In this document: positions 34,630 through 37,012 of the stretch, in pieces
Layout of the letters: each line of letters begins with the position of its first letter
Numbering within the stretch: the stretch's first letter is position 1
Sequence record: PQ390715.1
Length of the DNA: 64,000 nt
Reading direction: 5' to 3' (one strand)
Source: Escherichia phage SHEFM2K
Notes under the pieces: generated by a model
What the model was told of the DNA's origin: nothing
Databases searched by the model: none
The model's input: the letters and a program-made list of their open reading frames with translations, nothing else
Position numbers and translations under genes: made by a program

Positions 34630-35805
34630 TTACATGAAAGTAACGTTTTTGATAGCGATTTTGCTGTAGTAGTCAGCAGCGTTACCAAGAGATGAAGTAC
34701 TATCAGTCAATTGTACATAGCCATAACGGGTTAGAAAAGTTGTTACGAGTTCCCCAGTGTTAGGGTCCATTACAGTACCAGAAGCCATTAGTGGGATGTA
34801 TGGGCAATAGAACACACCAGCATCAGTTTCAGCATTACCTTTATAACCAATCAAAATGTCCTCGGCATCTGAAGCATACGTATCAACAAAAATACGCATA
34901 GTGCTGTTTAGAGTACCTACAAACTTAACGTTAGTTGGTGCTTCGAAAGTACCTTCAGTGGTACGTGCAAAGCTAGAAGTAGTAGCAGATTGTAGAATGG
35001 TTAGTGCAGTTGGGGAAACAACAGCCCAGTTTGCAGCACCACGCTTAGTACGACGAGCAACTTCGTTTGCTTGACGGTTAATTAGAGTTGCTAGAGCAGC
35101 GTGCTCATCACCAACGAAGGTTGCAACACCAGTAACTTTAGATTGGTCATAAGTTACAGCAGCAGCACCAGGTAGTGCACGTAGACGGCTTAGTAGCTCT
35201 TGGTCGATTTCTACGGTAACTTCTTGAGCGATTGCAGCCATTAGTTCTGCTTCAACGTCAACACCATGTTGGGATTGAGCATCTTGTGCAGATTCAACAG
35301 TCCAACGTGCAGATAGACGACGAGATTTCGCTTCAACAGTTTCACGTAGAATACGGATGTTAACGCGACGACCCATAGTACCTTCTAGTTGGCTAGTAGG
35401 AGCAGCTTGTGGGTTGCTATTATCCGCATTTAGATCACCAGAGTAGGATTTAGCGATTTTGTATGGAGAAAGCATTTCTTCACCAGCGATAACACCAGGT
35501 GCGTTATCAGCATATTGCACACGTAGGGTGTGGATCTGACCAACTGGACCAGTCATTGGTTGAACACCGATGATTTCGTTAGCAATAACGGTTGGCATTA
35601 CACGACGCATAATTGGTAGAATCACTTTGTTTAGAGTAGCGATGTTACCAGCGGTAGTTGCACCAGAAGTTGCGGATTCAGTTAGCATAACTTTACGATG
35701 GTTATCAAGAACAGTTTCCATTACAGACTTACGAGTACCCTGTAGACCTTCAACTAGTTTCTCTTTTACTGCTACCCATTTGGATTCATTTAGTAGTTGT
35801 GACAT
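34630..35805 (-). CDS. gp23: major capsid protein, gp23-like (short form)
   Basis: 391 aa; IANEIIGVQPMTGPVGQIHTLRVQY and VEAKSRRLSARWTVESAQDAQSQHGVDVEAEL align with T4 gp23 IAFDICGVQPMNSPTGQVFALRAVY and IEAKSRQLKAAYSIELAQDLRAVHGMDADAEL; AGGAG Shine-Dalgarno; late promoter motif upstream. Confidence 0.95.
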   Translation of the reverse strand: MSQLLNESKWVAVKEKLVEGLQGTRKSVMETVLDNHRKVMLTESATSGATTAGNIATLNKVILPIMRRVMPTVIANEIIGVQPMTGPVGQIHTLRVQYADNAPGVIAGEEMLSPYKIAKSYSGDLNADNSNPQAAPTSQLEGTMGRRVNIRILRETVEAKSRRLSARWTVESAQDAQSQHGVDVEAELMAAIAQEVTVEIDQELLSRLRALPGAAAVTYDQSKVTGVATFVGDEHAALATLINRQANEVARRTKRGAANWAVVSPTALTILQSATTSSFARTTEGTFEAPTNVKFVGTLNSTMRIFVDTYASDAEDILIGYKGNAETDAGVFYCPYIPLMASGTVMDPNTGELVTTFLTRYGYVQLTDSTSSLGNAADYYSKIAIKNVTFM

Positions 35806-35850
35806 TATATATCTCCTTAAAGATGTTATATTCGTTTTTCAGTATGATAT

Positions 35851-35858
35851 TATTTATA
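35851..35858 (-). promoter_or_regulatory. T4-type late promoter motif TATAAATA (minus strand)
   Basis: Plus-strand TATTTATA about 46 bp upstream of the capsid gene start (35805). Confidence 0.55.
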
Positions 35859-35896
35859 GAACTGAAAAATTTGATTATTAAAATGCTTTAAAATGT

Positions 35897-37012
35897 TTAT
35901 TTTTTATTGATACCTGAAAGAACATCGAGTTCTTTTAGGAATGCCATATCGTCAGCGGTCATTTCTTCGCTTTCAACAATAGCCTGACGGTTGCCAGTGA
36001 TTACTTTACCTTCTGCAAGAGTTTTCTTAGCGGAAGACTGAACTGCTTGACGAGTGGTAGCAGATTCATTTACTTTAGTACCGTTAAGTACTGACTTATG
36101 GTACTTGCTGAAATCTTCTTTAAGCTTTTCAGTAGGTGAAGTAGCTAGAAGGGATTCCATAATTTGTTTTTGCTGTGCAGTTAGTGGTTTTACTAGTTCA
36201 GACATAATCGCATTACGTGCTTGTGCATCTTCCATAATACGTAGTTTGGTTTTAGCAGCTTTAACGGCATTAGCAGTTTCATGTAGTTCTTGCTTAACTT
36301 GAGCAATTTCATCTTCTTTAGATTTAATTGATTCAGTTAGGGAACGTAGCAATGAATTTTCATTAAATTGTTTGACATTAAACTCTTGAGCAAATGCTTC
36401 AAAGATTTTACGACCAAACATATTTTGTTTTGCTTCCACTAGATCTTGTTTCAACGCATATAGATTCTTCTGAGTGGTTTCTGCAATATATTTAGCAGCA
36501 CTTTCAGATGTACGTTTGATGAAGTTATTACGAGCTTCAGCAATTTGACGTGAACCTTCAGCAAGTAGTTTAACGCGAGTTTCTACTAGTTGGCGTTTTT
36601 CAGTGTGGAATTCTTTTAGCTCTTCTGCTAGGATACCGTTAGAAAAATTAACGAATTTACCCATGCATTCATGAAGATGCTTACGTTCTTTACGCATTTG
36701 TTTAACTTCTTCAGCCAAAACAGAGTTTGAAAACGCAGAGAAATTGCTTAGTGTTTTACGTAGAGTTACACGATCTTCAACGAGACGTTTTTTCTCTTCA
36801 TATACAGCACCCATTTCTTCAGCAATGACTTGAGTAACCATAGTGTTCAAACCTTCGGTTAGTTCAGCCAAATCTTGCTGATAACGGCCTTTCATTTCTT
36901 CACGCATCTCTGCGGCTAGTGTATTCTTTTCTTCATTCCATGCTTCCTGAATTAGCTGTTTTGCCTCATCAGAAAGAGATGATTCTTTTAGAAGCTTTTC
37001 TAATTTAGACAT
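35897..37012 (-). CDS. gp22: prohead scaffold protein (gp22-like)
   Basis: 371 aa, coiled-coil-rich, between protease and capsid genes as in T4; AAGGAGAG Shine-Dalgarno; late promoter motif upstream. Confidence 0.65.
   Translation of the reverse strand: MSKLEKLLKESSLSDEAKQLIQEAWNEEKNTLAAEMREEMKGRYQQDLAELTEGLNTMVTQVIAEEMGAVYEEKKRLVEDRVTLRKTLSNFSAFSNSVLAEEVKQMRKERKHLHECMGKFVNFSNGILAEELKEFHTEKRQLVETRVKLLAEGSRQIAEARNNFIKRTSESAAKYIAETTQKNLYALKQDLVEAKQNMFGRKIFEAFAQEFNVKQFNENSLLRSLTESIKSKEDEIAQVKQELHETANAVKAAKTKLRIMEDAQARNAIMSELVKPLTAQQKQIMESLLATSPTEKLKEDFSKYHKSVLNGTKVNESATTRQAVQSSAKKTLAEGKVITGNRQAIVESEEMTADDMAFLKELDVLSGINKK

Follow-up and report, generated by a model that had tools for sequence, protein, structure and literature searches.

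We analyzed codon usage in a 64,000-nucleotide stretch of the genome of Escherichia phage SHEFM2K (PQ390715.1; hereafter, the window), with emphasis on two consecutive head genes in which leucine is written mainly with CTA, a codon that its host, Escherichia coli, scarcely uses in its highly expressed genes. The first, the major capsid protein gene (34630-35805, minus strand), encodes a 391-amino-acid protein that was assigned to PHROG 138 (major head protein, E = 1.4e-98) and is 100% identical to the major capsid proteins of phages 121Q and phAPEC6. The second (35897-37012, minus strand) encodes a scaffold-like head protein of 371 amino acids that matched phrog_10922 (E = 1.5e-182) and had no Pfam hit; its homologues are annotated as scaffolding protein in phAPEC6 (gp226c), A4, and UB. 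The window belongs to the PBECO4/121Q/phAPEC6 group of jumbo coliphages (genus Asteriusvirus, ~350 kb), as PBECO4 and phAPEC6 match it with 99.7% identity across 95-96% of a 24-kb query.

In the capsid gene, 24 of the 30 leucine codons are CTA, the others being three CTT, two TTG, and one CTC, while TTA and CTG do not occur. The same gene uses CGT for 20 of 21 arginines, GGT for 24 of 26 glycines, ACT for 30 of 40 threonines, GCT for 27 of 46 alanines, and GTT for 22 of 35 valines. The scaffold gene is similar (CTA 20/37, CTG 0, CGT 16/18), and relative to the CTA fraction of 0.16 in the rest of the genome the excess is significant in both genes (binomial test, capsid p = 2.7e-14, scaffold p = 1.6e-07). 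An initial annotation, made from the letters of the window, had described this CTA-dominated leucine usage and the accompanying CGT, GCT, GGT, ACT, and GTT preferences in the capsid gene, the scaffold gene, and a pair of paralogs, and the counts bear it out. The paralogs, both on the plus strand and both matching phrog_9326, are virion protein genes at 23191-23790 (CTA 11/15; phAPEC6 gp210) and 23805-24494 (CTA 15/22, CGT 9/9; phAPEC6 gp211). Three further genes of the window, all on the minus strand, carry the signature: those encoding a virion structural protein (37723-38583; phrog_15696; CTA 14/18), a single-stranded DNA-binding protein (SSB; 16592-17644; phrog_1192, E = 1.9e-101; CTA 15/21, CGT 14/14), and, in moderate form, another virion structural protein (1691-2347; phrog_14154; CTA 9/15). 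Outside the window, the tail sheath gene shows it as well (CTA 35/64, CGT 33/33), and the genes for thymidylate synthase, topoisomerase, and ribonucleotide reductase are more weakly CTA-rich. By contrast, the prohead protease gene (37079-37702, minus strand; phrog_207 head maturation protease; CTA 4/15) lies between biased genes, yet its codon usage is ordinary, and in the baseplate, terminase, portal, and helicase genes CTA makes up only 6-22% of leucine codons and TTA dominates, in agreement with the contrast drawn in the initial annotation.

Genome-wide counts were made on the whole PBECO4 genome, using 392 open reading frames (ORFs) of at least 100 codons, in which TTA is the commoner leucine codon (34.8%) and CTA accounts for 17.8%. 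When the ten genes for abundant proteins (3553 codons) were pooled, CTA made up 57% of their leucine codons versus 16% in the 382 other ORFs (Fisher p = 2e-47). An unsupervised principal component analysis (PCA) on relative codon usage in 233 genes, with no prior grouping, recovered the same set. Its first axis, which accounted for 24% of variance, was loaded positively by CGT, CTA, GGT, and ACT and negatively by AGA, TTA, ATA, ACA, and GGA; the capsid gene stood at the top, SSB was third highest overall, and the sheath gene, the paralog pair, and the scaffold gene were among the leaders.

CTA was enriched 3.2-fold in the codon frame but only 1.2-fold and 0.9-fold when the two remaining frames were counted, which indicates that the effect acts at the level of codons and not of an oligonucleotide motif. 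In the same genes CTG was depleted (3/255 versus 7% in other phage genes, p = 7e-5), and this depletion was likewise specific to the codon frame, the CTG trinucleotide not being avoided out of frame. Since both effects are limited to the codon frame and the genes that bear the signature lie on both strands, we rejected a DNA or RNA motif as the cause. TTA was also depleted in the abundant-protein genes (0.34-fold), as were all G-ending codons.

The bias is strongest in the genes of the most abundant proteins, both by their ranking on the first PCA axis and by virion data from phAPEC6. In that phage the virion contains 1620 copies of the capsid protein, no structural proteins are more abundant than sheath and capsid, and mass-spectrometry coverage of the paralog pair reached ~70%. 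Because the biased genes are those whose products are abundant in the phAPEC6 virion, the signature follows protein abundance, and the biased SSB gene, whose product is non-structural but abundant, shows that it does so beyond the late structural genes. The co-variation of CTA with CGT, GGT, and ACT along the first axis is the signature of expression-linked codon selection. The initial annotation had read the pattern as translational selection in a highly expressed gene set, and this reading holds up.

To place the signature relative to the host, we used 30 E. coli K-12 genes encoding ribosomal proteins, EF-Tu, EF-G, and RpoA (5185 codons) as a reference. Compared with other phage genes, the abundant-protein genes are shifted toward the host optimum for Arg, Gly, Ala, Val, Thr, Ser, Ile, Asn, Phe, Lys, and Glu, and the optimum codons shared by phage and host include CGT, GGT, GCT, GTT, ACT/ACC, ATC, AAC, and TTC. 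Leucine runs in the opposite direction: CTA falls from 57% in the abundant set through 16% in the rest of the phage to 1% in the host reference, while CTG rises from 1% through 7% to 80%. Only two of 384 leucine codons are CTA in the host ribosomal and elongation-factor genes, and the genome-wide phage value of 17.8% compares with 1% in those genes and 3% in a low-expression E. coli set, making CTA common in the phage and rare in the host. Proline and glutamine also depart from the host pattern (CCA 71% and CCG 2% versus CCG 67% in the host; CAA 88% versus CAG 82% in the host), so that preferred codons of phage and host disagree for three amino acids, Leu, Pro, and Gln. In each of these the A-ending codon read by a U34 tRNA (CTA, CCA, CAA) is the optimum, strongly for leucine and weakly for proline and glutamine, and the codons that E. 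coli supplies best (CTG, CCG, CAG) are depleted in the abundant-protein genes.

Codon adaptation index (CAI) values, with weights taken from the E. coli ribosomal and elongation-factor reference, separate the two components. The capsid gene scores 0.76 when Leu, Pro, and Gln are left out, close to the 0.75 of the phage T4 capsid gene gp23 and far above the phage genome median of 0.41; restricted to these three amino acids, its score is 0.05, below the genome median (0.10) and T4 gp23 (0.45). Outside Leu, Pro, and Gln, therefore, the capsid gene equals T4 gp23 in its adaptation to the host. The likeness to T4 extends to the overall arrangement, in which an abundant-protein gene set stands apart from the rest of an AT-rich (~35% GC) genome through a shift to CGT, GGT, GCT, GTT, ACT, ATC, AAC, and TTC. 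The difference is that the capsid gene of the window writes leucine against the host (CTA 24/30, no CTG), with Gln and Pro also off the host pattern, whereas T4 gp23, a control with the same host and GC content, has CTG at 18 of 29 leucines, no CTA, and CAG at 20 of 28 glutamines. Since T4 gp23 does the opposite, we rejected the idea that the CTA preference is general behaviour of AT-rich coliphages. Cowe and Sharp, in 1991, reportedly described expression-linked codon bias in T4 and other coliphages, with host-preferred codons in structural genes. The use of host-preferred codons in phage structural genes was also found by Lucks et al. 2008 (PMC2266997). The genes studied here follow this norm at most amino acids and reverse it at leucine.

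The initial annotation had attributed the bias to an abundant tRNA-Leu(UAG), possibly encoded by the phage. This part fared unevenly. No tRNA genes were found in the window. PBECO4 encodes six tRNAs, Thr(UGU), Asn(GUU), Met(CAU), Ser(GCU), Ser(UGA), and Gly(UCC); the codons they serve are either depleted in the abundant-protein genes (ACA, GGA, TCA) or show no enrichment there. A tRNA-Leu gene was not found anywhere in PBECO4 by ARAGORN, by intron-tolerant ARAGORN, by Rfam at gathering and E-value thresholds, or by BLAST with 29 tRNAs from phages GAP32 and CBB, and a relaxed-threshold ARAGORN run on PBECO4 gave many spurious calls, none with a UAG anticodon. Published or annotated tRNA sets include no tRNA-Leu in fEgEco12 (six tRNAs), EJP2 (six tRNAs), or RaK2 (five tRNAs and two pseudo-tRNAs), and no Asteriusvirus record appeared among the full-length matches to the CBB tRNA-Leu(UAG). 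The sister genus Mimasvirus is different: its arrays are large (26 tRNAs in GAP32, 33 in CBB), and both phages encode Leu(UAG), Gln(UUG), Pro(UGG), and Arg(ACG). The GAP32 tRNA-Leu(UAG) has an anticodon arm identical to that of E. coli leuW, and the CBB tRNA-Leu(UAG) resembles those of Aeromonas phages. A phage-encoded cognate tRNA thus exists in GAP32 and CBB but not in PBECO4, the window, EJP2, fEgEco12, or RaK2. Codon compensation by phage-encoded tRNAs, for which the XacN1 report (PMC5852040) is one source and Bailly-Bechet et al. 2007, as cited in PMC7318152, another, fits GAP32 and CBB, whose tRNAs read codons that the phage uses often and the host seldom, but not the genus of SHEFM2K, which has no Leu(UAG), Gln(UUG), or Pro(UGG) tRNA.

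An abundant host tRNA-Leu(UAG) is contradicted by the single leuW gene of E. coli and by the 2/384 CTA count in its ribosomal and elongation-factor genes. One leuW gene is present in 5,414 of 5,426 complete E. coli genomes, and extra copies in particular strains were rejected as an explanation (median one place per genome, maximum three, with an additional copy in only ~20 genomes). Dong, Nilsson, and Kurland, in 1996, are said to have ranked tRNA-Leu(UAG) as the least abundant leucine isoacceptor and tRNA-Leu(CAG) as the most abundant. In E. coli K-12, leuW, which reads CTA, lies in the cluster metT-leuW-glnU-glnW-metU-glnV-glnX (696430-697133), adjacent to and on the same strand as glnU and glnW, which read CAA; this adjacency may be a coincidence, or may be relevant if infection alters expression of the cluster.

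Three further observations concern the tRNA genes themselves. At 210838-210916 (minus strand), PBECO4 has a tRNA-like element that Rfam detected at its threshold (29.3 bits) in addition to the six tRNAs called by ARAGORN, with acceptor, anticodon, and T arms, a long variable region, and the anticodon loop CU-UCU-AA, but without a D-arm. Because EJP2, GAP32, and CBB have an intact tRNA-Arg(UCU), this element is probably a decaying tRNA gene, and as such would be evidence of a shrinking tRNA cluster in the genus. Thr(UGU) and Asn(GUU) are retained in the minimal tRNA sets of PBECO4, EJP2, and RaK2, and the PARIS nuclease AriB has both among its three main targets in E. coli (PMC12409363); the phage Thr(UGU) continues after the anticodon with UAAGG where the E. 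coli target site reads UAAUC. ACA, the codon cognate to Thr(UGU), is depleted in the abundant-protein genes. These retained tRNAs may serve defence evasion and not codon supply. In GAP32 (L017:10274-10346) and CBB (L016:17996-18068), ARAGORN also called a CUA-anticodon tRNA (amber-suppressor or Pyl-like) beside tRNA-Leu(UAA).

The CTA preference is shared well beyond SHEFM2K. Capsid genes of relatives contain CTA at 24/29 (GAP32), 25/29 (CBB), 25/30 (EJP2), 25/30 (A4), 16/26 (RaK2), 13/28 (PA5oct), 16/32 (SCTP-2), and 1/35 (Atu_ph07) leucine codons, and the CTA optimum is a family trait of Rak2-like phages. RaK2 is the one lineage with fewer CTA codons, and its capsid gene has seven CTG. PA5oct, a jumbo phage that infects Pseudomonas and falls within the same wider clade (PMC7318152, a paper that contains no per-gene codon analysis), likewise pairs an AT-rich phage with a GC-rich host and uses CTA at 13/28 without a tRNA-Leu(UAG); it differs in that two of its 12 tRNA genes are Leu(UAA) and 10 of its 28 capsid leucines are TTA.

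With the cognate tRNA in one genus and missing from the other, the bias in Asteriusvirus might be a leftover: an ancestral array with tRNA-Leu(UAG) would have set the CTA optimum, the array would recently have been lost, and the CTA codons would not yet have decayed under relaxed or reversed selection. Beyond the tRNA-Leu(UAG) of the sister genus, this account draws support from the PBECO4 tRNA cluster, which is collinear with the GAP32 array but compressed to ~15 kb versus 40 kb, from the PBECO4 UCU element lacking a D-arm where relatives have an intact gene, and from RaK2, in which two pseudo-tRNAs, lower CTA, and the seven capsid CTG codons look like a partial shift to the host optimum. A remnant of the tRNA-Leu gene was not found in PBECO4 by BLAST with the relatives' tRNAs. 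More directly, codon turnover does not resemble decay. We compared four head genes among the window, EJP2, and GAP32, which are about equidistant (amino-acid identity 0.73-0.77), with identity at conserved fourfold-degenerate codons down to a near-saturated 0.61-0.65 in spite of the strong bias. At conserved leucine sites, both genomes had CTA in 35 cases against 30.8 expected from independent draws, and the differences in which only one genome had CTA were balanced (17/13, 14/12, and 11/14). Between the window and A4, both from the genus without the tRNA, 13% of nucleotides and 28 of 91 conserved leucine codons differ, with CTA only in the window at 15 of the conserved leucine codons and only in A4 at 10. 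Some CTA gains could be polarised and came from TTA and CTT, for example a TTA-to-CTA change where three outgroups hold TTA. The capsid genes of the window type, A4, and EJP2, none with the tRNA, all keep 24-25 of 30 CTA although these lineages are separated by synonymous differences at 24-36% of codons, and CTG was absent from the capsid gene of every Asteriusvirus examined. Pure decay would moreover require an ancestor with ~72 CTA codons in the four genes, when all extant lineages, tRNA-bearing or not, have 49-62. A steady CTA level (~80%) with balanced gains and losses through near-saturated turnover, maintained without the tRNA, indicates that CTA is not a decaying relic, and we regard that account as unlikely. 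We conclude that CTA is under continuing selection in Asteriusvirus and that CTG, which is one transition away from CTA and is the leucine codon best supplied by the host, is selected against.

We therefore favour, at a rough probability of 0.55, a family-specific codon optimum kept by decoding-level selection that uses host tRNA. About ten abundant-protein genes, including those for capsid, scaffold, sheath, SSB, and head-internal proteins, share one codon optimum, and the reading-frame specificity of the effect suggests that selection acts on decoding. In the genus of SHEFM2K, CTA would be decoded by the tRNA from the single-copy host leuW gene, whose supply is probably adequate for the slow cycle of a jumbo phage: by a rough estimate that assumes a burst of tens of particles over at least 1 h and uses assumed tRNA numbers, CTA demand comes to approximately one use per tRNA molecule per second. 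Within the infected cell, selection would prefer CTA over TTA and CTT and disfavour CTG.

Several points weigh against this explanation. The host tRNA pool alone should make CTA the worst leucine codon, so that a supply argument predicts CTG, as in T4, and the explanation gives no reason for CTA winning over CTG in E. coli. The proline and glutamine shifts are modest, being significant only when genes are pooled and not in single genes, and part of them may stem from the AT-rich baseline. Expression levels are deduced from gene function and from the virion proteomics of relatives, and the statement that SHEFM2K has no tRNA-Leu is based on close relatives (99.7% identity).

An alternative that would account for the avoidance of CTG is that infection itself remodels the tRNA pool, either by disabling tRNA-Leu(CAG) and other C34 tRNAs or by inducing the metT-leuW-glnU-glnW operon, so that CTA and CAA become the best codons and host messages are starved. 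The codon-frame-specific depletion of CTG in the abundant-protein genes and the location of leuW and glnU/glnW in one cluster on the same strand are compatible with it. Genes for a CCA-adding enzyme, a polynucleotide kinase, and an RNA ligase are also present in the phage and together imply tRNA damage and repair during infection. Kano-Sueoka and Sueoka, in 1968, and Yudelevich, in 1971, reportedly found that T-even infection cleaves host tRNA-Leu1, but T4, the precedent in question, still writes gp23 with CTG. Moreover, no gene for such an activity was identified, the depletion of G-ending codons is general and extends beyond the codons of C34 tRNAs, and because SSB, probably an early or middle gene, is equally biased, the change would have to act early. 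We consider pool remodelling about as improbable as the persistence of an ancestral bias.

Less likely again is that the optimum was adapted to other, CTA-preferring hosts, such as Vibrionaceae or Alteromonadaceae, with E. coli a recent or secondary host. CTA is the main leucine codon of tuf in Photobacterium (14/24) and Alteromonas sediminis (16/27), where CCA is also dominant, and these bacteria illustrate that CTA can be a true translational optimum given a suitable tRNA pool. A distant relative infecting the marine halophile Salicola has a capsid CTA count of 16/32, and the CBB tRNA-Leu(UAG), besides its likeness to those of Aeromonas phages, has many matching records from Vibrio phages. 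However, Photobacterium and Alteromonas are not known hosts of this phage group, the close relatives were all isolated on Enterobacterales, and in the highly expressed genes examined in Pectobacterium and E. coli, 80-92% of leucine codons are CTG and 0-1% are CTA. The CTA preference is also at steady state across several lineages infecting Enterobacterales, and the remainder of the optimum is close to that of E. coli. Least likely of all is selection unrelated to tRNA supply, acting on mRNA (stability, nuclease sites, or structure) or on decoding accuracy, the latter through avoidance of UUR codons, whose third position tRNA-Phe can misread, and of G-ending codons: TTA is indeed depleted even in relatives that carry a second tRNA-Leu(UAA) gene (one capsid TTA each in GAP32 and CBB) and G-ending codons are all depleted, but the frame specificity of the CTA and CTG effects counts against simple motif or composition effects, accuracy would favour any CTN codon without singling out CTA over CTT, and T4 lacks the pattern in the same host. 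Decoding-level selection on host tRNA thus remains our preferred explanation.

Other features of the window bear on gene content and not on codon choice. Directly downstream of the capsid gene is a 332-amino-acid ORF (33492-34490, minus strand) with a C-terminal T5orf172 (GIY-YIG-like) domain and atypical codon usage (CGA 5, AGA 4, CTA 1/18); PBECO4 lacks it, its alignment starting at window position 34560. A second, smaller T5orf172 ORF lies next to it (32770-33096, minus strand). In relatives, the same slot beside the capsid gene holds an 'endonuclease' in RaK2 and a 'Hef-like homing endonuclease' in PA5oct, and this variety makes the slot appear to be a hot spot of mobile endonuclease insertion. 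At the other end, the plus strand from ~60130 to 64000 has no listed long ORF because a 10-kb virion protein gene (PBECO4 gp538, 3333 amino acids), starting just past 60082, runs off the window end; the short ORFs listed in this region, with high GC content at third codon positions, are probably spurious overlaps.

Phages are already well known to show codon bias linked to expression and to compensate for codon usage through tRNAs of their own, and what is unusual here is the leucine variant; our full-text literature searches gave no description of a per-gene CTA pattern in Rak2-like phages. Codon adaptation to the host tRNA pool is used for host prediction, for phage genome design, and for explaining phage tRNAs, and the present case is a coliphage capsid gene that is otherwise host-adapted like that of T4, yet has leucine fixed on E. 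coli's rarest leucine codon without a tRNA of its own. If the tRNA pool is remodelled during infection, this would constitute a new layer of host takeover: the abundant-protein genes would be written in a codon dialect closed to host messages, a form of host shut-off by codon partitioning, and both the counter-selection of CTG and the upkeep of CTA would be explained without a phage tRNA-Leu. If host leuW alone suffices, models that derive codon optimality from tRNA supply do not fully describe infected cells. Predicting hosts from codon usage would, for its part, misplace this phage family toward Vibrio- or Alteromonas-like hosts.

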